Positions 938 to 24,037 of a stretch of DNA of 32,000 bases are shown one piece after another. The stretch is from the NCBI GenBank assembly GCA_963719035.1, contig CAVRAO010000006.1:109231-141230 (forward strand). The letters run 5' to 3'. The notes beneath the pieces are model-generated. The model ran no database searches, was not told the origin of the DNA, and saw nothing but the letters and a program-made list of their open reading frames with translations. Every line of letters starts with the position of its first letter. Position 1 is the stretch's first letter. This stretch comes from Methanobacteriota archaeon. Its GTDB lineage: Archaea > Halobacteriota > Bog-38 > Methanoflorentales > Methanoflorentaceae. The position numbers and the translations under genes were made by a program.

Positions 938-3900
938 CTACGAGGCGCTGCAGATGTTCGATTCCTCTTTGCCAAAGACAATTATCTGATCAGCTTTGTA
1001 GAGCTTGTACGAATCGTTGCCCGCTTTCACGTTGATGTTAACGAGGCCGTGGTTCACCGGTGAACACCCGCCGCTGGCCCAGTCCTTGGAGGTCATGGTC
1101 GAATTGACCGTCAACGATTCCCCAGGTTGAAGGATGAGCTTCTTGCCCGCAACGTTGCCGACTGACGAAGACTGCTTGCACACAAGCGCCTTGAGTTGTG
1201 TGGCGTTGGTCGTCGAGACTTTGCTCGTCGTTTGGTTTGTGCGGTTATGGCTTGTCAGATACTTGTTCCTGACGGACTTTCCGACGACGCCCGTCGCGTT
1301 AGTTTTGGTTGTCGCTTCGCTTGTCGTCGGTATGTTGAGCGTAGATCCGATGAAATCCAAATGAATGCCAGCGGCGTTGTGCCTCGTGCCGTCGCTCAAC
1401 ACCGTATTAGCGGAAGCCGAGCCGCTACACGTCGTGCAGTTCTGTTCTGCGGCAAATACGAACGGGGCACTCGTGCCAGTCCGGTTAACGTCGCACCCGT
1501 AGAGAGAGATGTAAGGCGAGACTTCTATCGGGATGTCTAACGTATTCTTTATATCCCACTCCATGTGGACCAAGCCGGTGTTGGTGTCGCGCACGAGCCT
1601 GAACCCGTCGCCCTCATAGGTGATGACGCCGTCCGCTTCGTATTTTTCAAGGCCGATTATTTCGTGAGGCGGCGCGGAGTTTGGAGCGATTTGGTATTCG
1701 TCTGTAGGTGTGGGCGTAGGGGCTGGAGCTTCTGGGGTTGGCGTCGGTTCAGGAGTCGGGATTGGAGTTGGTGTCTCTGGGGTTGGCGTTGGTGCAGGTG
1801 GAGGGGCGCTAACCGTGATGCCGTGAGTGACCGAATCGGTCGCGCCGCCGTTGTCGGTAACGGTCAGGGTGACGGTGTAACTACCGGCCGTGTTATACGT
1901 GTGGCTGGGAGACTGTGCCGTTGAAGAGGCCCCGTCGCCAAAGTCCCATCTATATGAAGTAATTGACCCGTCGGAATCAGAAGATGTAGAGCTGAAGGCG
2001 ATTGTGCCACCTGTTTGCACTGAAGTGGGAGAAGCTGTGAAGGCGGCGTTCGGAGCGGCATTTGTCGCGGTGACTGTGACCGTATCTGTACCTGTAACCC
2101 CATGGTCGTCAGTAACCGTGAGGGTGAGTCCATATGATTCGGTTGTGGATGTAGCAGGGGTTTGAAGGGTGGGGGTGGCGGTGTCAGCGCCGGAAAGGGT
2201 GGGGTTACTGCCCGCGGGTTTGGAGGTGATGACCCACGCGTAGGTGAGGGTGTCGTGGTCAGGATCGGTGCCAGAACCGCGGAGGGTTACTGAGGTGCCG
2301 GCGTGAATCGTCTGGGCGGGGCCGGCGTTTGCAGTCGGCGCATGGTCGATGATGACAAGGGTGATAGTGTCGGATCCAGTGGCGCCAGTGGGGTCTTTAA
2401 CGGTGACGGTGACCGGATAGTTGCTGAAATCGGTGGCACTAAAAGTGGCGGACGTGCCGTCGGCGCTGGGGGTGAGCGTTCCTCCTGATGCGACGGGCGC
2501 CCAGGTGTAGGCGAGGGTGTCGCCGTCAGAGTCGGAGGTCGCGGTAGTGAGGGTAATGGTGGCGTCGTTGTGCGCTGTAGCCGCGGGAGACGCAGCGAGC
2601 GTTACAGAGGGTGCCGTGTTTCGTGTGTCGGTTGTGAAGCGGTGGTGAGAGTGACCGGGTTGGCGATCACGTTATCGAGGGAGCCGGGGCCGCTCGTGAG
2701 TGCCCAGGTGTAGGTGAGGACGTCTCCCGCGTCGAGGTCGTGGGCGGCGCCGGTGATCTGGGCGGTTTGTGCCGGCGTGGACGGCTGACTGCGGTGGCGG
2801 TGTCAATTATGGGCGGCTGGTTCACCGGCACGACGACGTCGCCGTAGCCGACGATTTGTCGTTTCCGAAGTTGTCTCTAACAGTCGACTTCACGCTGTAC
2901 ATGCGCATCAGCGAATACGTTGGTCGAAGTGCGCTCGTTGACGTATGCGACTCGCCAAAGTCTGAAAGCACTGGTAGATGAAGCCTCCGTCATTAGGATC
3001 TGTTGAAGTGGACGTGAAGTTGACCTGTTGCCCGGCTTCCGGTGAGGTAGGCTCGTAGGCGAAGTTGGGGATAGGTTTATTCGAATGACCAGCCGCGACA
3101 ACGGTTACCGTTCGAACTGTTGTATCATCAGACCCGCTTCCGTCGCGAACTGTACAGGTAGATAGTGTAGGGACCCGCACTCGTGAAAGTGTGAGTTCTA
3201 GTAGGGTTGGTGCTAAAATTCAGCCAATTGCTTGGTGTGTCGAACCTCAATCCGACGTTGACGATTGGACCGACTGAATCACTCGCATCGAATGTGATCG
3301 GCTGCCCCGCCACCGGCGATATAGGCGTATAAGTGAATTCGGCCAAGAACTGCTGATTGAGCGTGCACGTCAAAGCTAAGGAGCCACGTTTGATCACATG
3401 CGCAATCGGCACCTGTACATGGATATTGTGATTGTGATCATTGAGACGACGCGTTGATGTGTATGTTATAGTGGCAACACCGTTCTCGTCAGTCATCGGA
3501 GGAGTAGTGCCGTAGGGGGTCATCGTTAGGATTGTTGGAAACAAAATAGACCTACATTCTGGAGCCGGAAGCTGGTAGGTAGCGTTAATGACTGTAACGG
3601 AGATTGTGTAAGGCGTATTTATATTTACATCGAGCGTCGGAACGTTGATGACGACTTCATAACCGTAAGGGTCGATAACGACAACCGAAACGGGATTGCT
3701 CGTGAGTTGAGTCCCGTTAATAGAAGTTGACGCCTCGAACGTATATGTACCAGGTGCGTTTTCAGTGACCGTGAGAGATGCGGAGCCACCTGGGCCGGTG
3801 GTTGTGGTTCCTTCGCGACCCGTCAGTGCTCGAAATGCTGACAGCGTGGCCTGATAAGGGGCTGCCGTTGTGATTAACGAGCGCAGCCGTGAGGGCAAAC

Positions 3901-5027
3901 GGCTTCCCAGCAACCACTTTCAAGGGGGCGCTGAGGGTAAGCGCGGGATCCTCTTGCGCCTTAATAGCAGTAGCGGAAGCAGCAGCAGGGGTTATCACAG
4001 GGATGATGCGGACAAGGAGCGGGTCACTGGCATAGCGGCTCGCACCCACCGTGGCGACAGCCTGGAAGGTGACGTTCCCAACCTCCGACTCGGTGCCCGT
4101 GAACGTCGCTGAACCGTCGCTTGCAGTAGTCGCGGTGCCAACCGTGGTGAAGCTATTGCTACCCGTAGCGCGCTGGAAGGTGACTGAAACATTCGTTAAC
4201 GGCGTGCTGTTGTTAACGAGCATCGCGATAAGAGTAAACGATTGGTTAACTGTTGCGTCCGCAGGGCCCGTTAAAGTGAGCACCGGGAGAACTCCGCTGA
4301 CGCCCAATGAGTCGATTATGGTCGATGAATTATTAGACGCCTGAGGGACAGACGCGTTAGACTGTGGTGTCGCCGTGGGAGAACCGCTTGGCGTTGGAGA
4401 GGGTTCCGGTGATGCTGACGGAGAAGGGGATGTCGAAGGTTGTAGTGAAGGCGATAGTGACGGTGTTGGCTGCAGGGCGTGAACGGTAACAATAATCTCA
4501 TTGCTCGTGCGGGTGGTGCCAGCGTCATCGATGCGGGCGGCCCACGTGACGGCGTGTGCTGTTGGATCACTGTGCGAAAATGAGGCGACACCGCTGCCAT
4601 CGGTCGTCGCGGTCCCAATTACGACGCCGTCAGCAGTGAACGTAACGGGCGTGTCAGAGCGGGGATTCCCGATGGCCTCTTTAAGCGTAGCGGTGAACGT
4701 GAAGGACTCATTGACATTCACGTCAGCTGGGCCTTGAAGCGTGAGTATTGGCGGTAAAGATGGGGTCGGAGAAGGCGTGGAAGTTGGAGAAGGCGTGGAA
4801 GTTGGAGAAGGCGTGGAAGTTGGAGAAGCAGAAAGCGAAGGTGACGGTGAGGGTTCTGGAGACGGAGTCGCCGTCGCGAGCGGTGTAGCACTCGCTGATG
4901 CGAGCGGAATAGTGGCCTGCGTGGTGTCTGCCGCACTCGTTTTAACTATGCTAAACGCACCGTTGCCGTAAAGGATCGAAACTAGGAGTACTACAACTAG
5001 TAGTACTGCAGAACCCTTATGTGCCAC
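938..5027 (-). pseudogene. Very large secreted PKD / Ig-like repeat surface protein, reading frame interrupted at least 6 times (pseudogene or indel-laden assembly)
   Basis: GTG start at 5027 preceded by SD-like AGGTGGTGA. Signal peptide MAHKGSAVLLVVVLLVSILYG. Then PT/S-rich linkers and Ig-like repeats (LTLQGPADVNVNESFTFTA, LTLTGPADATVNQSFTLIA). PKD repeats follow (HTFTSAGPYTIYL..TVRDGSGSDD; WDFGDGASSTAQSPSHTYNTAGSYTVTLTVTDNGGATD), plus repeats with D-x-D-x-D-x-LTY-x-W motifs. The C-terminal domain is sequon-rich and ends at TAG 938. Hand translation shows the frame switching at about 3790-3830, 3150-3158, 2965-2975, 2830-2850, 2770-2800 and 2605-2670. The 938-2020 ORF actually stays open upstream to 2671 without a start codon. 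Confidence 0.75.
4768..4829 (-). repeat. Perfect 18-bp tandem repeat x3 plus an 8-bp partial copy (GGAGAAGGCGTGGAAGTT on + strand) encoding the (PTSTPS)n linker
   Basis: Copies at 4768-4785, 4786-4803 and 4804-4821 are identical, and 4822-4829 is a partial copy. They translate on the minus strand to the repeated TSTPSP stretch of the surface-protein linker. Confidence 0.9.
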
Positions 5028-5458
5028 GTCACCACCTACGCGATACGAGTTGCCGTTTGACTACAATATTGCTAACTAACTACAGTCTTGTCGCCACTGT
5101 TAGAGTATAATCAATCTCCTAGGCTCATATATATAAATGACTGTGACAGGTAAATGTGACAATTACATGATAAGCAGTATAGTGCTGCAAAATCTGCAAA
5201 AAACCGTGAGCATCCACTTCCTGAAAGCTGGGCGATACTGAGGCGGCGAATCGAAAAAACAGGGGTTTCTCACTCGTAACAACGAGTTTGATTACATCCC
5301 CTTCTCTTTTATCGAGTCAGCAAAAACCGGAGTAACGTCGATAAGATCCGCTTTGCACAGCGCGCTTCGCTGCGCCGAAGAGATGTCATATCGTCCCGAG
5401 CAAACTTTTTATACTCTCACGAGAGCTATCGATACGAACAATTTTTCAACACCGCTAA

Positions 5459-6987
5459 TCATCCGAAAAACCTAACCAATCAAGTGGGGCTCTCGGACGG
5501 ACGCTAACAACCCGGGGTGATGACATAGCAAAACTGTCCTCCAATTATACCGATGATGATGCATCCTCTGAGCTATTTGCACTAAGTGCCGCTCTTGCGC
5601 ACCGGCGTGCCCGCGACGACGTCGAGCACGGCGAGATCAAAGAGTTCGCACGGACGAAGCTCAAGGAGTACTGGACTGAAGCGCGCCAGGGCCCCCCGAA
5701 TTCATGGACCTTCTACCGTATGGGTTTGGCCTATCTGTACCTCAATAAGCCCTATCCGGCGTTTGCTGCGTGTGCTAAAGCCCTTCAGCTGAGCGGGTCA
5801 GAGCTCGTGCTTGACGCCGCCTATGACGCGCTAAGCGCGCTCGACGAGTGCGAAGAGGGACTTATCGGATGCGAATGGCTGCGCCGATTGCTCCTCATCG
5901 GGGCCGCAGGAAGATTCCAATCAATGAGCGCGCTCGCGCGCGTACAGGTGGTGGCGTCGAACGCACCACCAATTAAACCCCCCGTCACGATTTTCGCGGG
6001 CGGGTGCAGAGCAGACGATCAAGGGTGTCTCTTGATTTATCGCCCACTCGTGCTTCAAGCCTTTAGCACATACACGGGCACGATCATCTCGGGAGGCACA
6101 GCCTCCGGCGTGTGCAGTCTCGCTGGAGACTTGCAAGAAGCGTGGCCAGAGTCCATCCACACAATCGGCTACGTCCCTCGCGATATGACCGAGGTGCCCA
6201 TAGACGATCGCTATCGTGAGATACGATACACACCAGGTGCCGAATTTAGCGCCACAGAGGTCATCCAGGTACTGGTGCGATCTCATCGCTTCCGGCGTGC
6301 CACCGGCACACGTTAAGGTGTTCGGCATCGACGGCGGCTCGATATCAGCGAGCGAATATAAAATGGCGCTCGCCCTCGGCGCTTCCGTTGCTTTGCTACA
6401 TGGAAGCGGACGCGAGGCGAAGAAGATTCTACATAATCGCCAATGGCGGGCCTCACGAGGGCTCATATGTGTTCCCGTCGATCCTTATGTGATCGAGGAA
6501 TTCGCTAAGCCACACCCAGTGCAACTCGACCCAACCGATAGAGAGCGGTTGGCGCGTGTTATACATGAAGAGTATCGGGCCAGTGAACAGGATCTCACAG
6601 CCGGACGATCCCGCTATTGCTTCTTGGGATGAACTTCCGAGCTACCTCAGACACTCGAATCGAGCGCAAGCCGATCGTGTCTGTGAGAAGCTACAGCGCA
6701 TCGGATGCTCTATCGAGAAGTCAGGGAACAAGACGCCGGTGACCGAGTTTACCCCTGAAGAGCTCGACATCATGGCGCAAATGGAGCACGGCCGGTGGGT
6801 AATAGAGCGCCTCGACGGCGGCTGGACGTCTGGACCGCGAAGAGACTTACGGCAGAAGATCAGTCCCTATTTTGTCCCGTGGCCTATGCTGTCAGAGGAC
6901 ATAAAGAACAAAGAGCGCAAGATGGTTCGTAACATACCACAGCTCCTTGCAACGATCGGCTTACAGGTATGCGAGACGCGCGAGTGA
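5459..6987 (+). pseudogene. TPR-like / SLOG (LSDAT_prok-like Rossmannoid) / 2x RyR-domain protein, frameshifted
   Basis: Three overlapping ORFs (5720-6316 frame 2, 6216-6632 frame 0, 6556-6987 frame 1) join into one protein.
- TPR-like segment: SWTFYRMGLAYLYLNKPYPAFAACAKAL.
- SLOG-like core: VTIFAGG..GTIISGGTASGVCSLAGD..IGYVP..(shift)..VKVFGIDGGSISASEYKMALALGASVALLHGSGREA.
- RyR-like unit 1: LARVIHEEYRASEQDL(shift)PDDPAIASWDELPSYLRHSNRAQADRVCEKLQRIG.
- RyR-like unit 2: ELDIMAQMEHGRWVIERLDGGWTSGPRRDLRQKISPYFVPWPMLSEDIKNKERKMVRNIPQLL.
Frame changes lie at about 6266-6272 and 6595-6606. Frame 2 is open from 5459, but there is no ATG/GTG/TTG before 5720. An ATGATGATG at 5553 lies in another frame. 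Confidence 0.65.
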
Positions 6988-7224
6988 TAGTCACATCCAG
7001 AGCGTTTTGCGCGCTGTCACTTGGCAGGTTTGCACGCATCACTTTTTGTACTGGGAGTACGCTAACAAGGCACACGCCATTAAGCCAGGCGCGCGCGCGA
7101 TGATTTTGCTTATCCACAACAGAATGGAGCTCGTTAGTCTGAAGCTGAGAGATCGTGTTCTGTCAAGAGCTGCGTTCGATTGCCGAGCGTTCGCCCGCCG
7201 CGCACAACGGGGAAAGGTGTGATT

Positions 7225-8409
7225 ATGGCGCCGTCATATGCTGAGACGAAAGATCAAAGCGTGGTCAGCGGCGACTATTGCGCCGGGCTTCAGGAACCAA
7301 CAGACGATATGCACGACACCCCCGAGGAGATGGCGCAGTGGGGACCGCTTGCTGCCGCTCTCCAAAGCTGCCAAGACATCGTCGAACCGGCGTATCAGGC
7401 GGCGGATCACACGGCTGTGCACTTCCAGAGACAACATCAGGCCATTACCGTCGCGGCCGCCGTCTTCGGTACCTTCGCTGTCCTTTTTGCGATCCTCCAG
7501 CTGCCCCGAATTATCAGCGGATTTGTCGTATCGATTCCCGTAGCTGAGGGCATCACGGCGGCAATCGCGTTCATAGCGGTCCTGCTCGGCATCTTCACGC
7601 TTCGACAAGTGAGGTGGATGTTCCTCCGCCATAAGGCTGAGCGGTTCAAGTTCCTCAAGTTCCACTTTTTGATTGACCCGCATCTTTGGGGCGCCGACCC
7701 CGACGAACGGGAACGAACGGCGCAATGGCTCAAATACTCGGCTAACAAGATCGCCGAACTGACGAACGAGGAGCTGGAGACCTGGGCAGAGCACGGCATC
7801 CTCCCAGAAGAGTCGGCCAGCTTAGCAGGCAGCAAGGCCGATGCGTACACGTTGTACAAGCTCGTCGATTATTACCTAACCAAACGCTGCAGAAATCAGC
7901 TGAAGTATTTTGAACGCAAGGCCCAGCAGTTTTCAAGCAGGGATCGCTACATTAAGGCGTTGCCTCGCCTTCTGTTCTTTGGGAGCATTTTTGCCGCGCT
8001 GATGCACTTCTCCCTCGACCTTTTCGAAACGTACCTCCTCCCGCACGGGGAGGTGGCGGCTCAGACCGCCGAAGCGGCGACAGAGACTGCACCCCCCATC
8101 AACCTGACCGTGGCTTTGATCCTCGTTGCCGCTTCGCTCCCCGTCATCGGAGCGGGCGTCCGGACGTTCCGATCGGCCTACCAGCTCGCCCGCAACACGA
8201 GCCGCTACAAGGCGGCTTTCGAAGCGATCAAGCTGCCAGCCGAACGACTTGAACTTGATGCCGGACGCCTCTATGGACTCTACGCTGAGGGGCACACGGC
8301 AGTCGACGCCCACGACGTCTTTCGCGACATGTGGCGCTGTGAGCAGATCTTAGAGGCCGAACATCGCGAGTGGTTGCGCTTAATGATGGAAGCCGACTGG
8401 TTTGGCTAG
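7225..8409 (+). CDS. Membrane protein with two SLATT-like (DUF4231-like) 2TM modules
   Basis: ATG at 7225 is preceded by GGAAAGGTG. Module 1 is AYQAADHTAVHFQRQHQ followed by TM AITVAAAVFGTFAVLFAILQL, TM ITAAIAFIAVLLGIFTL and RHKAERFKFLKF. Module 2 is YYLTKRCRNQLKYFERKAQQFSSRDRY followed by TM LPRLLFFGSIFAALMHFSL, TM LTVALILVAASLPVIGAGV and RTFRSAYQLARNTSRYKAA. The pattern of an amphipathic helix, a 2TM hairpin and a basic helix fits SLATT as I remember it. Confidence 0.6.
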   Translation: MAPSYAETKDQSVVSGDYCAGLQEPTDDMHDTPEEMAQWGPLAAALQSCQDIVEPAYQAADHTAVHFQRQHQAITVAAAVFGTFAVLFAILQLPRIISGFVVSIPVAEGITAAIAFIAVLLGIFTLRQVRWMFLRHKAERFKFLKFHFLIDPHLWGADPDERERTAQWLKYSANKIAELTNEELETWAEHGILPEESASLAGSKADAYTLYKLVDYYLTKRCRNQLKYFERKAQQFSSRDRYIKALPRLLFFGSIFAALMHFSLDLFETYLLPHGEVAAQTAEAATETAPPINLTVALILVAASLPVIGAGVRTFRSAYQLARNTSRYKAAFEAIKLPAERLELDAGRLYGLYAEGHTAVDAHDVFRDMWRCEQILEAEHREWLRLMMEADWFG

Positions 8410-8570
8410 TCCAGAAAAAAGCGCTTAGAAGAACGAAAAACGTCAAAAGGCGCTCTGTGGCGGCGGAATCGCCGATCGCGCATACAGCCGAAAAGCTTAA
8501 TATAAGAAGCGATCAACAAGCTTGAACAATTGTTTGTCACTAACTGCCACGGTATGTAAACTGGTGTACC

Positions 8571-9605
8571 ATGGGCGATAACATCTTCATCAGCTACTCT
8601 TCAAAAAATAAGGCCATCGCTGACGCCGTTTGTCATAAGCTTGAAGAACGGAAGATGAAATGCTGGATTGCGCCTCGTGACATCCTGCCTGGTGCAAATT
8701 ACGCTGAAGAGCTCATTAATGCTATTGATAACAGCAAGCTCTTTGTGCTCATTTTTTCCAAAGACTCGAACCAGTCACAACACGTGCTTCGAGAGTGCGA
8801 GCGCGCCGTCTCCCACGGGATTCCTATCATTCCGTTCCGCATAGAGGACGTGCTTCCCGGCGCTGCGCTGCAATACTTCATCGGGCCACAGCATTGGCTC
8901 GATGCGATAACTGCGCCGTGTGACGCTCATATAAATCGCCTCGCTGATACTGTTAACATTCTCCTTACCCAAGAAGACCTCACGCAGAAGAGCGCCGGCG
9001 AAATGCTCGCTGATGCCGAAGCGCTCGCGGTACAGCGGCAACAACAGGTCACAAAGATGAAGCGGACCACGATGGTGCTCGCTGCCGCGATAGTCGTGCT
9101 CGCCGTTATCGGCGGTGGGTGGTTTATTTCTCAACAGATGAGTCAGGCGAGCATGAACCTCGTGCCGTATGTGAACGCTGCTGCTGGATTCAAGATGGAA
9201 GCCCCGCAAGGATGGGAAAAGGTTGATCGGACACCCACTACCGACAATCCAATAGCAGCGATTTTCTATTTGCCGACGAATAATAAGTCCGAACAAGTTA
9301 ACATCATAGTGACGCCGGCAGAAGGTGCCGACTTTGATAAGGTGACGACGACTAACCTGGATAACGCACAAACGTTGGTGGACAATAAAAAGATCGACAT
9401 GATCGAGTCAAGCGAAACCACGTTAGGCGGTCAGACGGCGTACAAGATCGTCTACAACAATAATGCCGCCGGCTTGAGGAGTATGCAAATCTGGACCGTC
9501 AAAAACGATACGGTCTACCAATTCACTTATAACGCGCAGCCACAGCACTACAACGATTATATTGCGACCGTCCAAAAGATGGTCGACTCGTTCCAAATCA
9601 CGTAA
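8571..9605 (+). CDS. TIR domain - single TM - extracytoplasmic PsbP/DUF1795-like domain protein
   Basis: The N-terminus is IFISYSSKNKAIADAVCHKLEERKMKCWIAPRDILPGANYAEELINAIDNSKLFVLIFSKDSNQSQHVLRECERAV, a TIR_2-type pattern whose S-x-[WH]-V-x-x-E glutamate (E75) is retained. The TM helix is TTMVLAAAIVVLAVIGGGWFI. The C-terminal ~150 aa (FKMEAPQGWEKVD..VNIIVTPAEG..TLGGQTAYKIVY..VYQFTYNAQ..VDSFQI) resembles the PsbP/Mog1-like sensor fold. Confidence 0.7.
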   Translation: MGDNIFISYSSKNKAIADAVCHKLEERKMKCWIAPRDILPGANYAEELINAIDNSKLFVLIFSKDSNQSQHVLRECERAVSHGIPIIPFRIEDVLPGAALQYFIGPQHWLDAITAPCDAHINRLADTVNILLTQEDLTQKSAGEMLADAEALAVQRQQQVTKMKRTTMVLAAAIVVLAVIGGGWFISQQMSQASMNLVPYVNAAAGFKMEAPQGWEKVDRTPTTDNPIAAIFYLPTNNKSEQVNIIVTPAEGADFDKVTTTNLDNAQTLVDNKKIDMIESSETTLGGQTAYKIVYNNNAAGLRSMQIWTVKNDTVYQFTYNAQPQHYNDYIATVQKMVDSFQIT

Positions 9606-9607
9606 TT

Positions 9608-9643
9608 GGCGCGCGCGCCACGGAAGGTGCCTTTTTCTTTCTC
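9608..9643 (+). terminator. Possible terminator of the TIR gene: GC palindrome followed by a T-rich run
   Basis: GGCGCGCGCGCC (9608-9619) sits 3 nt after the stop and is followed by GGTGCCTTTTTCTTTCTC. Oligo-T tracts are archaeal termination signals. Confidence 0.3.
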
Positions 9644-9919
9644 AACTCACTATTTGGACATTTGCCTTCGCTTTAAACATCAGTTAAAAGGCGCCAAGGC
9701 GGTTCACGATCCAGCGGGCTTATCCAATTGTTTAGTTCATGTGGGGTCGCTGACTTAATAGGCTCGACGGTCACTTTAGCGGCTAGCGTTATGTCTATGC
9801 GTAAACGGCATAGCGGCGTTCAACAGAAACGTTTATGAGGGTAAACTCTGTCTTTTTTCCGCATGGTGCTGCGCTTTGCAGCAACAGCTACGTTACGTAA
9901 TTTTCACAAGGCGATCAAG

Positions 9920-11295
9920 ATGAATGACGACAGCAACTTAAAAAGCCTCCTTGCTGATTTAGGGAGTTCGGAATGGCACACGAGAGTTGAGGCCGTGCGA
10001 GCGCTCCGTAAGCTCGGCGACAAGCGTGCCGTGGAGCCCGTCATTGGTACGTTGAGCGACGAAAACAAGGTGGTGCGCAAGTACGCGGCATACACGCTCG
10101 ACAAGCTCGGCGACAAGCGTGCCGTGGAGCCGCTTATAACCACGCTAAGCGACGAGAGCACGAGCGTTAGGAGCATGGCAGCTCAATCACTCGGCCACCT
10201 CGGCGATGCGCGGGCCGTTGAGCCGCTTATAGATTCCTTGAACGACGAGGAATGGCTCGTTCGCGATGCAGCAGCACATGCGCTCAGTCACCTCGCCGAC
10301 AAGCGTGCCGTGGAGCCGCTCCTTACTGCAATCAACGACGAGCACTGGTTCGTTCGCGAAGCCGCAGTGCGCGCTGTTAGCAAGTTGGATGATGAACGGG
10401 CCCTGGAACCGCTCATTTCCGAGGCGTTTAATGACGAGCACTGGTTCGTTCGCGAAGCCGCAGTGCAATCGCTCGCATCGCTTGGCGACCCGCGGGCCGT
10501 TGAACCACTCATCACGATTGTGACGAGTCCAAAAAGCGACGCGGAGAGAAGTACCATGGGCGACATATACGTTCGAAAGGCGGCGGCACAGGCGCTGGGC
10601 ACGCTCCACGATAAACGAGCTATGGAACCGCTCATTGTCGCGTTGACCGACGAGTACCCGTAGTTCGTGAAGAAGCAGCCCGTGGTCTCGGTCAGCTCCA
10701 CGATAAACGCCCTGTTACTCGACTTATCCGCGCGTTGGACGATGAATATTGGACCGTCCGCGAAGCAGTAGCACGCAGTCTTGGCCAGATTAATGACGAC
10801 CGGGCCGAAGACGCCCTCTTTGACACCGCTGTGGGCAACCGGCCCTGGATTCGTGACCTGGATGACCAGGACAAGTACGTGCGCAGTGTGGCGACACACT
10901 CCCTCTGGAAAATGGGCGATATGCGCGCCATCGATGCGCTGATCGACAACCTGCAGAGCGAGGATCGCTTTGTGCGCAAAGCCGCAGCTGAAACGCTTGG
11001 GGAGCTCGGTGACAACCGCGCGGTTGATCCGCTCGTTGATGTTCTCGCCAATTCTGATAGCAACGACCGAGCGCACGCAGCTGACGCGTTAGGCAAGATC
11101 GGCGATGCGCGGGCCGTTGAGCCGCTGATCCACGCCTTAGGCAATGAAAATTCGTCAGTTCGTAACTACGCAGCTTACGCCCTCGGTCAACTCAAAGATC
11201 CGCGGGCGATCGATCCGCTCACTCGAGCTTCTAATGATGTTGACATCGACGTCCGAGATTCCGCTGCTCACGCATTGTGGAGGCTTCAACGCTGA
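9920..11295 (+). pseudogene. PBS-lyase-type HEAT-repeat protein (~14 repeats) with one frameshift
   Basis: Contains repeated units of the form W-x-VR-x-x-A-x-x-AL-G-x-L-GD-x-RAVEPLI. The ORF 9863-10663 stops at TAG 10661. Shifting one frame at about 10650-10660 (TACCCGTAG) continues a clean HEAT unit (PVVREEAARGLGQLHDKR..LDDEYWTVREAVARSLGQI) into ORF 10735-11295. The likely start is ATG 9920 (MNDDSNLKSLL). Confidence 0.75.
10013..10466 (+). repeat. Near-identical intragenic DNA repeats (HEAT-unit duplications)
   Basis: The 26-nt CTCGGCGACAAGCGTGCCGTGGAGCC occurs at 10013-10038 and 10106-10131, and with 1 mismatch at 10292-10317. The 34-nt GACGAGCACTGGTTCGTTCGCGAAGCCGCAGTGC is identical at 10337-10370 and 10433-10466. 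The offsets of 93 and 96 nt equal one HEAT unit. Confidence 0.9.
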
Positions 11296-11451
11296 AGAGA
11301 GTGTCTCTCGCTTATAGTCGCGCGACTTATTCGTACCTCGACCGCGGGCCCCCCTCAAGACCTATTTAGCCCGCTTTAGGTAAACAACGTTCTTTTTAAG
11401 GCGCGGTTTGAATAAGAGCCCAGAGCAGAAGTGGTCAGAAAAGTTAATCAA

Positions 11452-11500
11452 AAAAAGACCTGCAAAATCTTCCTCAAGCGGCGCACAAACTGCTGTGCGC
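11452..11500 (-). terminator. Hairpin plus T-run downstream of the flavodoxin-like gene
   Basis: GGCGCACA-aactgc-TGTGCGCC is a perfect 8-bp stem at 11479-11500, about 27 nt past the minus-strand stop. It is followed on the minus strand by T7 (the A7 run at 11452-11458 on +). The region lies between convergent genes. Confidence 0.4.
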
Positions 11501-11526
11501 CAAGTTTAGGCTACATGTCGTTTCTC

Positions 11527-12037
11527 TCACGCCGCAGAAGCTTTGATTCCCTTCTCAAGAGTTGAGACAAAGTTCTGGACCGTTGGGATGTGTTTTCCTT
11601 TTACAACCTCTTTCGTTGTCGTGTAGAAAGTCGCGACCGGAGGCTTACCGGCGAGTTCCTGCATATCCTGCAGCGTGGTCTTATTCCCAGAGAAGTCATA
11701 AGTGCAGAAGAACGCAGCGTTTTTTACTTTGCCAGCGTTTTGCACCATGTTACGTCCTAAGTGCACTGGCCACTGTATACGCCCATACCGGGCCGCCAAG
11801 TATTACGACGTCATACGACGAGGGATCGTACATCGTCGGCTTGATCGGAACCTCTTTCTTTTCTGTCGACTCTTGGTAAGAGAGTTTGTAGCCTGCAGTG
11901 CCCGCTCGATTGGTGGGATCGATGAGTTCCTCTAAGTCACATTTGAACGCCGTCTGTTGTCCAATAGTGCTCATAACCGTTCTCGCAACCTTTCTTGCCG
12001 TTCCGGTTCTAGAATAGTATGCGATGAGGCACTTCAT
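11527..12037 (-). pseudogene. Flavodoxin-like fold protein, one frameshift
   Basis: MKCLIAYYSRTGTARKVA..YDVVILGGPVWAY (ORF 11750-12037) continues in another frame as WPVHLGRNMVQNAGKVKNAAFFCTYDFSG..(ORF 11527-11799). The frame change is at about 11770-11785. Confidence 0.6.
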
Positions 12038-12214
12038 AAGTTTAGACGGTGCCTGAAATCCTATTTAACTTTTTCTAGACCGACCCAATCCTGGATTTAT
12101 CGCAAAAAGAACGAGTTGTAACTGCAGCACTGTTGGACACTGTTATCGCTGAACGCGACCCGCACCGCTCGAGTGATCGGGGACACCTGTGATCAGCGGC
12201 CGCGCCTTTAAACG

Positions 12215-19309: not shown

Positions 19310-19668
19310 TGAGTCATATCTGTGATGTCTTCTGCATAAACAAAGATGCCGTTAATCACGTGCGATCGCAGATGCTTAATCATCAGCTTTTTGCTAATAC
19401 TGCAGAAATCTTTAAGGTGCTCGGCGATCCGACGAGAATGCGACTTCTTTACGCCCTTGCACAACGCGAGCTGTGCGTGTGCGATCTCTCTGCGGTGCTT
19501 GGCATGACGCAATCCGCGATTTCTCACCAGCTCCGGGTACTAAGAAGCGCACGGTTGGTCACATACCGTAAAGCAGGCAAGGTCGTGTACTACACACTTG
19601 CTGACGCTCACGTTACGCAGTTCATCGATGTTGGAGTTGACCATGCCCGAGAATCACAGCCACGGTGA
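19309..19668 (+). CDS. cadC: ArsR/SmtB-family metalloregulator, CadC-like
   Basis: MSHICDVFCINKDAVNHV carries the N-terminal Cys pair. LCVCDL is the alpha3 Cys pair. The wHTH is LGMTQSAISHQLRVLR. It is closely collinear with CadC as I remember it. The upstream in-frame ATG 19291 and TTG 19255 fall inside or before the operator, so 19309 is preferred. Confidence 0.8.
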   Translation: MSHICDVFCINKDAVNHVRSQMLNHQLFANTAEIFKVLGDPTRMRLLYALAQRELCVCDLSAVLGMTQSAISHQLRVLRSARLVTYRKAGKVVYYTLADAHVTQFIDVGVDHARESQPR

Positions 19669-21580
19669 AGAGAGCTGCTCTACCTGCGCAACGGACATCT
19701 TTGAGGAAAAAAAGCCGTTGTGGAAGCAGAAAGAAGTTGTCATCATTAGTATAGCAGGTGCTCTCTTTCTCATCGGCGTATTTCTCGACGCTGGGCTCTC
19801 TCAACACGTCCTGGCCCAAATCGCATTCCTCGGTGCGACACTCATCGCAGGGTACTCCATCATCAAAAAGGGTCTATTGGGGGTTATCCGAAAGCATCGG
19901 CTTGATATGAATCTGCTGATGACGATCGCTGCCGCAGGGGCATTCTCGATCGGCCACGGCGAAGAGGGTGCAGCAGTGATGCTCTTATTCTTTATCGCAG
20001 AGTTCCTCGAAGACTACGCCGGCGATAGGGCACGACAAGAAGTCAGGTCACTGCTCAGGCTTGCGCCAGAGACGGCAGTCGTCGTGCGCGAAGGGCGTGA
20101 GATCATCGTTCACGCCCACGAGGTCGAGGTCGGAGAGGTGGTCATCGTAAAGCCCGGAGAAAAGGTACCACTCGACGGCGTCATTATTAGCGGCATCTCA
20201 TCACTAAATCAAGCCGCCCTCACAGGAGAGAGCGTTCCAGTGGTCAAGACGATCGACGACACGGCATTAGCTGGTACAATCAGCGAGGACGGATATCTCG
20301 AAGTACGCGTTACGAAGAGGTCTGATGAAACGATACTGTCGCGCATCGTGCAGCTGGTTGATGAGGCTCAGCGGAAGAAGACGCCGACCGAGGCGTTTAT
20401 CGACCGGTTCTCGCACTATTACACCCCCATCGTCATAACACTCGCAGCGCTAGTAGTTATCCTTCCCGTCCTCCTATTTGGCCTACCATTTAGCGAGTGG
20501 TTTTACAGAGGCCTCGTACTTCTCGTCGTCTCTTGTCCGTGCGCTATGGCGATCTCTACGCCGGTTTCTATGGTGTCAGGCCTCACCGCAGCGGCCAGGC
20601 GTGGCATCCTGATAAAAGGCGGTGACGTAATCGAGGAGCTGAAGGACGTTAAAGTAGTCATCTTTGACAAAACGGGGACGCTCACCGAAGGACGACTAGC
20701 CGTGACAGATGTGATCGGTCTCAATGGCGCGACAGAAGGCGAAGTAGTGAGGATAGCAGCGTCTTTGGGGATAAAATCGACCCATCCTGCGTCGCAAGCG
20801 ATCGCGAAGAAGGCAGACAACGACAAGGTCGTGTCAGCGCCGATCACCGATTTCAAATCGATTGCCGGAAAAGGCCTCACCGGGAGATTAAACGGCGCCG
20901 ACTTCTACGTTGGCAGCCGAAGCTTCCTCAGTAGCGTCAACTCGCGCCTGCCTCATGACGTTATTGACCGACTCGAGGCTGAGGGGAAGACGCTCATGCT
21001 GGTCGGCACCGATACCCACATCATAGGTGTCATCGGCCTCAAGGACCGGATTCGGGACTCATCGGCGGGGATGCTGCGAGCCCTGAGCGCACGTGGCATC
21101 AAAACCGTCATGCTGACAGGTGATAATGAGCGCGCAGCGGCTGCGATTGCTAATGAACTTCAGCTGAGCGAGTGTTATGCTGGGCTGCTGCCTGAAGATA
21201 AGGTGCGACACGTTGAGGAGCTGGCAACGGTATACAAACACGTCGCAATGGTCGGAGACGGCGTCAACGACGCTCCTGCGATGGCCCGGGCGAACGTCGG
21301 CATCGCAATGGGAGCTGCCGGCTCGGATGTTGCGATTGAAACTGCTGATATCGCGCTGATGCACGATGATCTCTCGAAAGTGACGTATCTCATCGATCTT
21401 AGTAAGAAAACGATGTCTGTGGTCAGAGAGAACGTGATCGTATCGATCCTCGTCAAAGGGTCTTTTGCAGTGCTCGCCCTTCCGGGAATCATCACTCTCT
21501 GGCTTGCCGTCGGCGTCGGCGATATGGGCCTAAGCCTCGCTGTCATACTCAACGCCCTCCGCATAGGTAGAAAGCAGTAA
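19643..21580 (+). CDS. cadA: P1B-type heavy-metal (Zn/Cd/Pb-type) translocating ATPase
   Basis: Motifs are TGES, CPC (VSCPCAMAISTP), DKTGTLT, STHPAS, GDGVNDAP, and GDMG in the last TM. There is no HMA (GMxCxxC) domain; the N-terminus instead carries HSHGEESCSTC. It overlaps the cadC end by 26 nt. An alternative start is ATG 19628. Confidence 0.9.
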   Translation: MPENHSHGEESCSTCATDIFEEKKPLWKQKEVVIISIAGALFLIGVFLDAGLSQHVLAQIAFLGATLIAGYSIIKKGLLGVIRKHRLDMNLLMTIAAAGAFSIGHGEEGAAVMLLFFIAEFLEDYAGDRARQEVRSLLRLAPETAVVVREGREIIVHAHEVEVGEVVIVKPGEKVPLDGVIISGISSLNQAALTGESVPVVKTIDDTALAGTISEDGYLEVRVTKRSDETILSRIVQLVDEAQRKKTPTEAFIDRFSHYYTPIVITLAALVVILPVLLFGLPFSEWFYRGLVLLVVSCPCAMAISTPVSMVSGLTAAARRGILIKGGDVIEELKDVKVVIFDKTGTLTEGRLAVTDVIGLNGATEGEVVRIAASLGIKSTHPASQAIAKKADNDKVVSAPITDFKSIAGKGLTGRLNGADFYVGSRSFLSSVNSRLPHDVIDRLEAEGKTLMLVGTDTHIIGVIGLKDRIRDSSAGMLRALSARGIKTVMLTGDNERAAAAIANELQLSECYAGLLPEDKVRHVEELATVYKHVAMVGDGVNDAPAMARANVGIAMGAAGSDVAIETADIALMHDDLSKVTYLIDLSKKTMSVVRENVIVSILVKGSFAVLALPGIITLWLAVGVGDMGLSLAVILNALRIGRKQ

Positions 21581-23100: not shown

Positions 23101-23386
23101 CCTATTAAGAGATGCGTCCTAAATACTTTGAGGTGCATTGCTCGTATCGAGTTTCAGACTCAAAGCTGGTGTCGCTGGCACAATCCCCTTTTCGGCTTAG
23201 AATTATATCTAAACCCTCGAGGAAACCTTTTTTCCGCTCTCGGTTTGGGGGGCTCAATGCGCCAAAAAGCAGTTCATGGAAATGCTATGTCAGCAAAAGA
23301 GAGCGGATCCGTCGTACACACGCTTTCTTGCGCACATTTGCGCGCTTATAGGTAATTTTTTTACGACGCACGAGAACAGAGAAAAC

Positions 23387-24037
23387 ATGCCGCTAGATCT
23401 AAGGGAGTCTGATCGCAACACACGTTTCTGGCGCCTCGATACTTTCAGTGATGCTATCTTTGCCGTCGCTATGACGCTCCTCGTTTTCAGCTTTCCTATT
23501 TCTGGTTTGCCCTCAAACCTCGGACAAGCTGAGGTTCAGGCACTTCTCGAAAGTTTATCGCCGCAGTTTGAAACGTTTGTCATTAGCTTCCTTGTGGTCG
23601 GCGCTTTTTGGGCCGGACATCACCGTATCTTTGACGCAATCGAACGCTATGATCACACGCTCGTGTGGCTTAACTTCTTCTTCTTGTTATTTATCGTCTT
23701 TATCCCGTTCCCCACTGCAGTGTTGGTCAGCGCCGGAAGCTTCTGGCTTCCCACCGCATTTTACGCCTCGACCCTTGCTGGCGCCGGATTTGCTCTGACA
23801 TTCGTGTGGCTGTACGCATCACACAACCATCGATTGATCAATATAAGCGTGCCTGTGCGCGAGATCCGACTGCGCACGCTGACGTCAGTCGTGGTGCCGA
23901 GCGTCTTTCTGCTCTCGATACTCGTAGCGTTTTACAACCCGCATCTTGCCCAGTACTTCTGGCTTTTGAGCTTTGTAGCACAATGGTCGATAGCTAAACA
24001 ATGGAGGAGGGACGAACGTCCTTTAGCCAAAATTTAG
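23387..24037 (+). CDS. TMEM175/DUF1211-family potassium channel homologue
   Basis: RLDTFSDAIFAVAMTLLV is the R-x3-FSD signature of TM1. There are six TM segments. ATG 23387 is preferred, with a T/A-rich box (CTTATAGGTAATTTTTTTA) 25-40 nt upstream. The ORF track start at 23276 adds a non-hydrophobic extension. Confidence 0.8.
   Translation: MPLDLRESDRNTRFWRLDTFSDAIFAVAMTLLVFSFPISGLPSNLGQAEVQALLESLSPQFETFVISFLVVGAFWAGHHRIFDAIERYDHTLVWLNFFFLLFIVFIPFPTAVLVSAGSFWLPTAFYASTLAGAGFALTFVWLYASHNHRLINISVPVREIRLRTLTSVVVPSVFLLSILVAFYNPHLAQYFWLLSFVAQWSIAKQWRRDERPLAKI

Follow-up and report, generated by a model that had tools for sequence, protein, structure and literature searches.

A TIR, SLOG-RyR and double-SLATT gene trio in an archaeal contig as a probable Thoeris-like nucleotide-signalling module

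Do three consecutive genes of an archaeal contig encode one nucleotide-signalling system, and which of their products would make, receive and execute the signal? The question was raised by a 32,000-nucleotide (nt) stretch of DNA from a Methanobacteriota archaeon (GenBank assembly GCA_963719035.1, contig CAVRAO010000006.1, positions 109,231 to 141,230 of the forward strand; the whole stretch is called the window below and is numbered from its first letter). An earlier note, made from the letters without database searches, had described a gene for a SLOG/LSDAT protein with two RyR domains and a TPR-like N-terminus (gene 1, 5459-6987), a gene for a membrane protein of two SLATT-like modules (gene 2, 7225-8409) and a gene for a TIR protein (gene 3, 8571-9605). 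These coordinates, the consecutive order on the + strand and the intergenic gaps of 237 nt (6988-7224, between genes 1 and 2) and 161 nt (8410-8570, between genes 2 and 3) were found as described. Because the three genes recur together across archaea and bacteria, the trio is, judged from sequence, very probably a Thoeris-like system with a signal derived from nicotinamide adenine dinucleotide (NAD), in a layout not yet catalogued. The more specific reading, a TIR-based three-protein nucleotide-signalling module in which the SLOG-RyR protein would relay the TIR product to the SLATT protein, is favoured here at moderate confidence.

Gene 3 (8571-9605, + strand), the candidate signal producer, is intact and codes for a protein of 344 amino acids (aa) composed of a TIR domain (8583-8975), a transmembrane (TM) helix (~9054-9134) and a PsbP-like domain (9156-9599). 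Pfam assigned the first to TIR_2 (aa 5-113, E=4e-22, 79 bits at a cut-off of 28) and the last, located past the TM helix, to PsbP (PF01789, PsbP/Mog1-like fold; aa 196-343, E=2e-11, 44.4 bits at a cut-off of 23.5). The single hydrophobic helix, at ~aa 165-188, has K/K/R on its N-terminal side alone; by the positive-inside rule, applied to this flank, the TIR domain would lie in the cytoplasm and the PsbP-like domain outside, in agreement with the membrane anchoring and outward-facing domain proposed earlier. The conserved glutamate that had also been claimed is Glu75, which corresponds to the catalytic glutamate of TIR NADases and was kept in 121 of 122 aligned TIR domains of the family. Ectodomains found in the same TIR-TM subfamily include lectin, LRR, WD40, PQQ propeller, PPC, Sel1 and HEAT. 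In PADLOC v2, gene 3 gave sub-threshold ThsB-like matches (E ~1e-3) and a SAVED-TIR match (9e-9), CAP12/Pycsar-TIR and SAVED-TIR models were matched weakly using Pfam and PADLOC, and no PADLOC v2 model matched genes 1 and 2.

Gene 2 (7225-8409, + strand) codes for a 394-aa protein with four TM helices, arranged as two SLATT_1-like two-TM modules (~7405-7788 and ~7873-8406), as the earlier note had supposed. The N-terminal module matched NCBIfam SLATT_1 (NF033634) over aa 61-188 with 43.6 bits (cut-off 41), and the C-terminal half alone matched Pfam SLATT_1 (PF18181) with 26.4 bits (cut-off 26.3); the full-length protein scored 22.5 bits against the Pfam model, under the cut-off, and the C-terminal halves of homologues reached 29-33 bits over the whole model. 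The term double SLATT is used because each half matches SLATT_1 separately, and not from a comparison of the two halves, which in hhalign gave a probability of 0.5%, not significant. A C-terminal helix, EHREWLRLM..EAEWFG, was invariant among homologues. The structure was predicted with a local distance difference test score (pLDDT) of 85, and a Foldseek search of the model against PDB gave no meaningful match (best E=0.02, ABC transporters). The name SLATT itself records an association with SLOG; SLOG, LSDAT and SLATT were reportedly defined by Burroughs et al. in 2015.

For gene 1 (5459-6987, + strand), the composition claimed earlier (TPR-like region, SLOG domain of the LSDAT_prok type, tandem RyR) was recovered by profiles after repair of two 1-nt insertions that break the gene in the window. 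The N-terminal helical, TPR-like region (5459-5971, + strand) matched TPR_1 weakly (E=9e-4) and consists of helices in the structural model. In bacterial homologues, this region is a longer TPR array with a RelA/SpoT domain before it, in some of them of the TPR-S kind; TPR-S (PF20308) is annotated on the N-terminal repeats of the homologues P0322, P0063, P0065 and P0070. A role of such TPR domains in TIR signalling was predicted earlier (Thoeris preprint), and TPR-S would be a third candidate ligand-sensing module in the gene 1 family.

The SLOG domain (5972-6506, + strand) gave a marginal match to Pfam LSDAT_prok (PF18171; 26.6 bits at a cut-off of 25.4), obtained on the frame-repaired protein only. 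The motifs GTIISGGT and GIDGGSISASE (GxxGGxxxxxE) were invariant across the gene 1 family, and GTIISGGTASGV and LLHGSGREA, the motifs quoted in the earlier note, were found in gene 1. A sequence search of PDB gave no match for the SLOG part, the RyR, RelA/SpoT and TPR regions being matched instead; the link to TRPM2 comes solely from the fold search, i.e. Foldseek against PDB with the model of P0001, the intact gene 1 product of near-identical contigs, in which the Rossmannoid SLOG part resembled the TRPM2 N-terminus with ADP-ribose (E=1e-5). The two tandem RyR repeats (6531-6987, + strand), a Repeat12-like module, scored 48-54 bits against Pfam RyR (PF02026; cut-off 27.4), and a PDB profile search of this part matched RyR1-3 and a Bacteroides RyR domain. 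The top Foldseek PDB matches of P0001 were human RyR3 Repeat12 crystal structures with ATP, ADP or dantrolene (E=3e-7, ~190-205 residues), ahead of TRPM2; in the viral structure library (BFVD), phage RyR-domain proteins matched best, followed weakly by LOG/DprA-type SLOG proteins. The AlphaFold2 model of intact P0001, built on an alignment of 47 homologues, had a mean pLDDT of 93.6. Pfam scans of gene 1 found neither SIR2 nor Macro, whose absence had been stated earlier, and an NCBIfam scan of gene 1 gave no match.

Repeat12 of ryanodine receptors binds adenine nucleotides, and MHR1/2 of TRPM2, its SLOG domain, binds ADP-ribose (ADPR); by its predicted fold, the gene 1 protein thus has two modules related to known binders of adenine or ADP-ribose nucleotides. 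According to two 2026 preprints, phage RyR (Repeat12-like) domains bind the cyclic ADPR (cADPR) species 2'cADPR, 3'cADPR and cADPR with nM to sub-uM dissociation constants, or hydrolyse them, and their ligand residues are a His-x-x-Trp motif plus a His and an Asp (PMC13232231; bioRxiv 10.64898/2026.06.04.730250). The phage protein RyDEP has the catalytic dyad His75/Asp117, plus Trp78 and His100. Residues were mapped onto RyDEP via Bacteroides and human RyR sequences; through the Bacteroides RyR, repeat 2 of the window protein has H443, W446, S468 (for His100) and E485 (for Asp117), and repeat 1 has H369 and Y372, followed by Asp/Asn for His100/Asp117. A tblastn search of the RyR pair against phage genomes returned three weak matches, with the RyDEP phage not among them.

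As sequenced, gene 1 is spread over three reading frames. The first frameshift (6268-6269, + strand) is an extra G relative to the near-identical contigs L001 and L002 (CCAGGTAC vs CCAGTAC), and the second (6603-6604, + strand) is a further extra G relative to the same contigs (GCCGGACG vs GCCGACG); both contigs code for the intact 421-aa product P0001, which matches the repaired gene with 100% identity. Comparison of the window with L001 over 5000-12212 gave 8 one-base indels and 17 substitutions, and the indels also disrupt the HEAT-repeat and flavodoxin genes. The window sequence looks like an error-prone (long-read) assembly, and the two insertions are probably assembly errors and not gene decay, because they are missing from L001 and L002 and because similar indels hit neighbouring genes; a pseudogene was rejected as the main explanation on these two counts. 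Over 2600-12212, indels relative to L001 lie at 3151, 3815, 6268, 6603, 7043, 10286, 10657, 11514, 11750 and 11822 and in a cluster at 2666-3914, and the genes split by them are those of an Ig/PKD surface protein (3128-5027), the HEAT protein (9863-11295) and the flavodoxin (11527-12037). The 5' end of gene 1 is uncertain: an open, conserved frame extends from 5459, but the earliest canonical start codon is the ATG at 5720, and the conserved N-terminal 87 codons in between (5459-5720) contain no ATG, GTG or TTG. The relative L003 starts with a TTG at the place of the window's ATA (5525), gene callers assigned 420, 487 or 533 aa to the gene on related contigs, and the start is possibly non-canonical.

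How far the trio travels together was followed across relatives. It was kept in L003/L010 (86% identity, a Methanomicrobia metagenome-assembled genome (MAG)), L011 (69%), L008/L015 (59%) and L094-96; flanking genes are common to the closer relatives, so synteny alone could explain its retention there. More telling than these close relatives are L004-6 (46% identity), where the order is AAA-RyR, SLOG-RyR, TIR, SLATT, with a TIR that is soluble, 367 aa long, non-orthologous and of a different subtype; a TIR of the same class appears to have been swapped in and the gene order reshuffled. Co-occurrence, which the earlier note had left to be examined, hence extends beyond close relatives.

Homologues of gene 1 were present at 80 loci in more than 12 bacterial and archaeal phyla, all in MAGs (one genome per species was scanned), and in 75 of them the protein begins with a RelA/SpoT domain akin to small alarmone synthetases. 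Clustering of the family at 50% identity (E<=1e-30) gave 672 clusters, nearly all RelA/SpoT-bearing; the short form without this domain is a minority, with few 50%-identity clusters among the matches listed (e.g. P0009, P0036). Partner genes were counted with hidden Markov models (HMMs) built from the hits of this analysis and run on six-frame translations: within 5 kb of the 80 homologues, a second RyR gene was found in 26 cases, a TIR in 19, a double SLATT in 8 and TIR plus SLATT in 6. Per 100 kb, the density around gene 1 homologues was 4.9 for TIR within 2.5 kb and 0.6-1.3 beyond, 1.7 for SLATT within 2.5 kb and 0 beyond, and 7.5 for other RyR genes within 2.5 kb and 0-1.2 beyond; this fall with distance served as an internal control.

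The TIRs directly 3' of gene 1 homologues in Chloroflexota (Anaerolineales, Dehalococcoidales), Omnitrophota, Bacteroidales, Thermodesulfovibrionia and Bathyarchaeia belong to the subfamily of the window TIR, characterised by the pattern FISYS..DK..A.AVC..LE...IRCWIAPRD...HWLDA.TPP, after which come a TM helix and a C-terminal domain that varies (e.g. HEAT, TPR, WD40). A metagenome scan for this TIR-TM subfamily yielded 80 loci; 29 were 8 kb or longer, and a RyR-domain gene was present in 9 of these 29, mostly at a distance of 1.5 kb or less. Among four hand-picked distant TIRs, two adjoin TM-TrkA_N-RyR genes and two are without relevant neighbours. The subfamily thus recurs beside RyR-domain genes without any SLOG. 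In addition, two fusion proteins, P0189 and P0184, join one N-terminal RyR repeat to a double SLATT of the same kind, and in Acidobacteriota (L183/L184, 7001-9564) the P0189 gene is convergent with a TIR-TM-ectodomain gene of the same subfamily. Taken together, TIR proteins (usually membrane-anchored with an ectodomain), RyR proteins and SLATT proteins appear to form a recurring network, of which the window would hold one three-protein version.

The L183 locus, a compact two-gene version of the system, has a phage-type integrase and an HNH gene ~4-6 kb away. A ~610-aa TM-TrkA_N protein (NAD-binding, KTN) with two C-terminal RyR repeats recurs in many bacterial phyla, its gene adjoining both RelA/SpoT-SLOG-RyR and TIR-TM-ectodomain genes (L017 7006-8811, L030 11724-13562, L065 6931-8772, L090 7227-9065 on the - strand, L100 4013-5773), and would be a candidate effector of the channel type within this network. 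Also in these neighbourhoods, AAA/STAND-like P-loop proteins of ~870-910 aa with C-terminal RyR repeats (L004 5167-7893, L027 3593-6238, L100 761-3379) make up a third class of partners tagged with RyR. In L107 (946-2412) and L113 (867-2318), a more distant SLATT-like gene lies directly upstream of a TIR-TM-type gene; no RyR gene was detected on these short contigs (6.1 kb and 4.4 kb, respectively); the two genes may make a pair of the type VII kind in which the TIR comes from the membrane-anchored subfamily. L007 (1-17071, archaeal, from ENA) is an island far richer than that of the window and contains RelA/SpoT-SLOG-RyR, an 85-aa open reading frame (ORF) and a double SLATT, at least 5 TIR genes or fragments including TIR-PsbP_2 and two TIR-PQQ propellers, as well as a NUDIX hydrolase, an Apyc1-like metallo-beta-lactamase and an Nmad3 protein.

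How new is the layout? Thoeris TIR domains convert NAD+ to cADPR isomers or His-ADPR, and TIR proteins are combined with SLOG effectors in Thoeris types I and III. The closest described system is type VII Thoeris, a validated two-gene system of a ThsB TIR and a ThsH SLATT effector that runs on canonical cADPR (bioRxiv 10.64898/2025.12.03.692087). The window resembles it in having a TIR gene beside that of a SLATT membrane protein, with an ADPR-derived signal expected to drive a membrane effector, and differs in its three genes, the tandem four-TM SLATT, the added SLOG-RyR protein and the archaeal host; moreover, the window TIR is of the TIR_2 type and membrane-anchored with an ectodomain, unlike type VII ThsB, and against two type VII ThsB sequences it gave blastp E values of 0.14 or more and no HMM match. 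With types I and III (ThsB plus ThsA SIR2-SLOG, and several TIRs plus a SLOG effector, respectively), it shares the pairing of a TIR producer with a SLOG-domain receptor, whereas its SLOG domain is of the LSDAT_prok/TRPM type and fused to RyR and TPR, and, where type I ThsA has a SIR2 (or TM) N-terminal domain joined to a STALD-type SLOG, the window protein is devoid of SIR2, Macro and any other enzymatic effector part; its SLOG matched LSDAT_prok alone, and the 50 best PDB fold matches of gene 1 include TRPM2, not ThsA.

The RyR part belongs, with phage RyDEP and RyR Tad, to the PF02026 family and has the same fold, repeat 2 keeping the His-x-x-Trp motif. In contrast to these phage proteins, the window protein is cellular, its RyR repeats form a single-chain tandem pair and not a homodimer, Ser stands for His100, and the pair is fused to SLOG beside a TIR gene, so that it would presumably be a receptor or regulator of the host's own signal. 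Both ligand-binding modules known from TRPM2 and ryanodine receptors (SLOG and Repeat12, respectively) are present in the one window polypeptide, which, unlike these animal proteins, has no channel domain; its membrane part would be the separate SLATT protein, and the homology is at the level of domains only. The nearest full-length relatives are RelA/SpoT-TPR-SLOG-RyR proteins of bacteria and archaea, annotated 'ppGpp synthetase/RelA/SpoT-type nucleotidyltransferase', which are homologous over TPR, SLOG and RyR at 35-46% identity; the window clade differs in having no N-terminal domain like the small alarmone synthetases. Within the parts of the 2025 Thoeris survey covered, its text and tables, there is no RyR or LSDAT entry, and an earlier drawing of LSDAT-SLATT or LSDAT-RyR elsewhere is conceivable. 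The earlier note had called the architecture unrecognised: this holds for the three-protein layout with RyR, and does not hold for its parts, since TIR with SLATT (type VII) and TIR with SLOG (types I and III) are known.

In the favoured reading, the TIR-TM-PsbP protein would be a single-pass membrane receptor, with the PsbP-like domain outside and the TIR domain, Glu75 intact, in the cytoplasm. Upon a stimulus at the surface, the TIR would use NAD+ to make a signal derived from ADP-ribose, with a cyclic isomer of ADPR as the likeliest product. This signal would be received by the soluble TPR-SLOG-RyR protein through the Repeat12-like RyR pair and/or the TRPM2-like SLOG domain. The SLOG-RyR protein would in turn control the four-helix double-SLATT protein and thereby change membrane permeability, with growth arrest or abortive infection as the outcome if the system serves defence, and regulated ion flux if it does not. 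Domain identities, features of membrane topology, conservation of key residues and the recurrent linkage of the three partner types are directly supported, and the biochemical steps, the sensor domain, the order of events and the biological trigger are what we infer.

The RyR module is likely, by analogy, to be a sensor of the TIR signal besides SLOG, because phage RyR (Repeat12-like) domains bind or cleave cADPR isomers made by TIRs. The earlier note had treated the RyR domains as a mere attachment to the sensor; they are instead probably central, given these phage ligand data and the recurrent adjacency of TIR and RyR genes, since the TIR subfamily adjoins RyR genes devoid of SLOG and the RyR-double-SLATT fusion adjoins such a TIR. 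Its division into producer, sensor and effector on three polypeptides fits the domains, and a pure sensor role of the SLOG-RyR protein is one of several readings.

A number of observations weigh against the relay scheme or against its assignment to defence. Gene 1 is frame-broken in the window itself. By-eye inspection of the intergenic regions showed a run of T following gene 1 and a TATA-like box ahead of gene 3, and with gaps of this size a single operon for genes 1-3 is putative. The 32-kb window holds envelope and housekeeping genes throughout, and the locus is syntenic across relatives, unlike a typical mobile defence island. In repeat 2, Ser stands in for the His100 with which RyDEP contacts phosphate, and in repeat 1 His100 and Asp117 correspond to Asp and Asn, respectively; ligand binding by the RyR pair is therefore not assured. 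No TIR, SLATT or RyR gene was found within 5 kb of 38 of the 80 gene 1 homologues, and the family is evidently able to work without a TIR; since, in addition, 75 bear a RelA/SpoT domain that the window protein lacks, a pure sensor of the TIR signal is not the sole reading of the SLOG-RyR protein. Finally, the SLATT protein may sense the signal directly, as type VII Thoeris needs no third protein.

Beyond the single locus, the relay scheme can be widened to a tentative view, plausible but short of probable, that cellular RyR domains, alone or with a TRPM-type SLOG, are natural receptors of cADPR-type signals made by TIRs. The TIR-TM-variable-ectodomain family would then be a class of prokaryotic outside-in receptors, comparable to Toll-like receptors, and the outputs would be RyR-tagged SLATT pores, TM-TrkA_N channel-like proteins, AAA/STAND ATPases and RelA/SpoT alarmone synthetases; such a network would be a prokaryotic antecedent of signalling from cADPR to the ryanodine receptor and from ADPR to TRPM2.

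Among the alternatives, the one that survives best concerns the role and overlaps the mechanism favoured here: the same machinery may serve outside-in signalling unrelated to defence, the ectodomain sensing an envelope or environmental cue and the output being ion flux (SLATT, TrkA_N-RyR) or, in bacterial relatives, alarmone synthesis (RelA/SpoT). We regard this as possible rather than probable. It is consistent with the envelope and housekeeping content of the window, with flavodoxin and DJ-1 genes that flank the trio in relatives down to ~59% identity, with a GC content of the trio that resembles that of its flanks, with the receptor-like ectodomains of the TIR subfamily and with scans of IMG/VR in which no relatives of genes 1 and 2 were found. 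On the other hand, every characterised prokaryotic TIR plus SLATT or TIR plus SLOG system is antiviral, L007 has several TIR paralogues, a NUDIX and an Apyc1-like gene, L183 has the integrase and HNH genes nearby, and some homologous loci adjoin defence genes. Of the matches that PADLOC gave for 130 neighbouring ORFs of 19 related loci, a handful looked real (Qat A/C/D, ThsB, PifA, AriA) and others were generic (DndA/SspA, RtcR, DrmD), too few and too mixed for a defence-island call; a defence role of the trio is unproven.

Alternatively, TIR and SLATT could be the working pair, as in type VII with SLATT as the sensor, and the SLOG-RyR protein a governor, sponge or hydrolase of the signal, its RyDEP-like RyR and/or LOG-like SLOG setting a threshold, preventing autoimmunity or resetting the system. 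Type VII Thoeris does run on two genes, phage RyR domains are sponges or glycosidases of these signals, and repeat 2 has H443 and the acidic E485 at the positions of the RyDEP catalytic dyad. The SLATT and TIR pairs in L107 and L113 also have no detected RyR gene; however, these contigs are short and a RyR gene may lie past their ends. We consider this arrangement unlikely, given that P0189 and P0184 join RyR directly to the SLATT effector, an arrangement more in keeping with a sensor than with a quencher, and that RyR is also fused to TM-TrkA_N and AAA/STAND bodies beside the same TIRs.

Still less credible is a reversal of roles, in which the SLOG-RyR protein would sense a nucleotide from another source (for the relatives, the RelA/SpoT domain of the same protein), with the TIR acting beside SLATT as an NAD+-depleting effector. 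The high share of RelA/SpoT-bearing homologues, the NADase effector function of TIRs in other systems and the weak CAP12/Pycsar-TIR and SAVED-TIR matches speak for it, but the window protein is without RelA/SpoT, which leaves no producer at the locus, the hypervariable outward-facing domain fits a sensor better, and the relatives of the RyR and SLOG domains bind NAD-derived ligands. That there is no working system at all, gene 1 being a pseudogene and the adjacency inherited synteny, is very improbable: the breaks at 6268 and 6603, a split of the same gene in another MAG (L008/L015) and the lack of a start codon in 5459-5720 are outweighed by the intact gene on two near-identical contigs, the 8:17 ratio of indels to substitutions and similar 1-nt indel density in neighbours, typical of assembly error, and a linkage that holds across phyla despite changes of gene order and extends to domain fusion.

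The closest genomic loci of the window are Methanomicrobia, Euryarchaeota and Halobacteriota MAGs, which supports the archaeal origin proposed earlier. Directly 3' of the TIR gene, on the + strand, lies a HEAT_PBS-repeat gene (9863-11295), a possible accessory that is split in the window by 1-nt indels at 10286 and 10657. It occupies this place in all close relatives (459-469 aa in L003, L008 and L094) and is absent from the 46%-identity clade; HEAT_PBS repeats are the C-terminal domain of same-subfamily TIR proteins in L020 and L057, and the gene may be a fourth component of the system. The remaining neighbours in the window comprise the surface Ig/PKD protein, UppP, a pyrophosphatase, glycosyltransferases, a flippase and a P-type ATPase (19598-21580), the last of these accompanied downstream by a TMEM175-type K+ channel homologue (23276-24037); both are ordinary, with no evident link to the trio. 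Scans of the window for tRNA genes and Rfam families gave no matches. L001 (1-7915) codes for a 2882-aa PKD-repeat surface protein with tandem repeats of ~840 nt, to which the window aligns on either side of ~2629, minus ~7 repeat copies; the missing copies reflect either a collapsed array or a genuine length polymorphism.

What would the locus mean if the favoured reading is true? A receptor-like three-component layout would be added to TIR signalling, and this in an archaeon; to our knowledge, few TIR signalling systems of this kind have been tested in archaea. Membrane-anchored TIRs with diverse ectodomains suggest sensing at the surface, and the only class of Thoeris trigger that we know of is the detection of infection in the cytoplasm. 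The trio also gives a cellular, genomic context to the phage RyR domains that bind TIR-derived cADPR isomers, and the presence of host RyR proteins beside TIR genes raises the possibility that the phage proteins imitate host sensors or descend from them. Regulation of TRPM2 and ryanodine receptors by ADPR and cADPR has been debated for decades. One prokaryotic protein here unites the ligand-binding modules of both of these animal Ca2+ channels, SLOG of TRPM2 and Repeat12 of RyR, and as a tractable soluble protein it could settle which ligands the two folds recognise.

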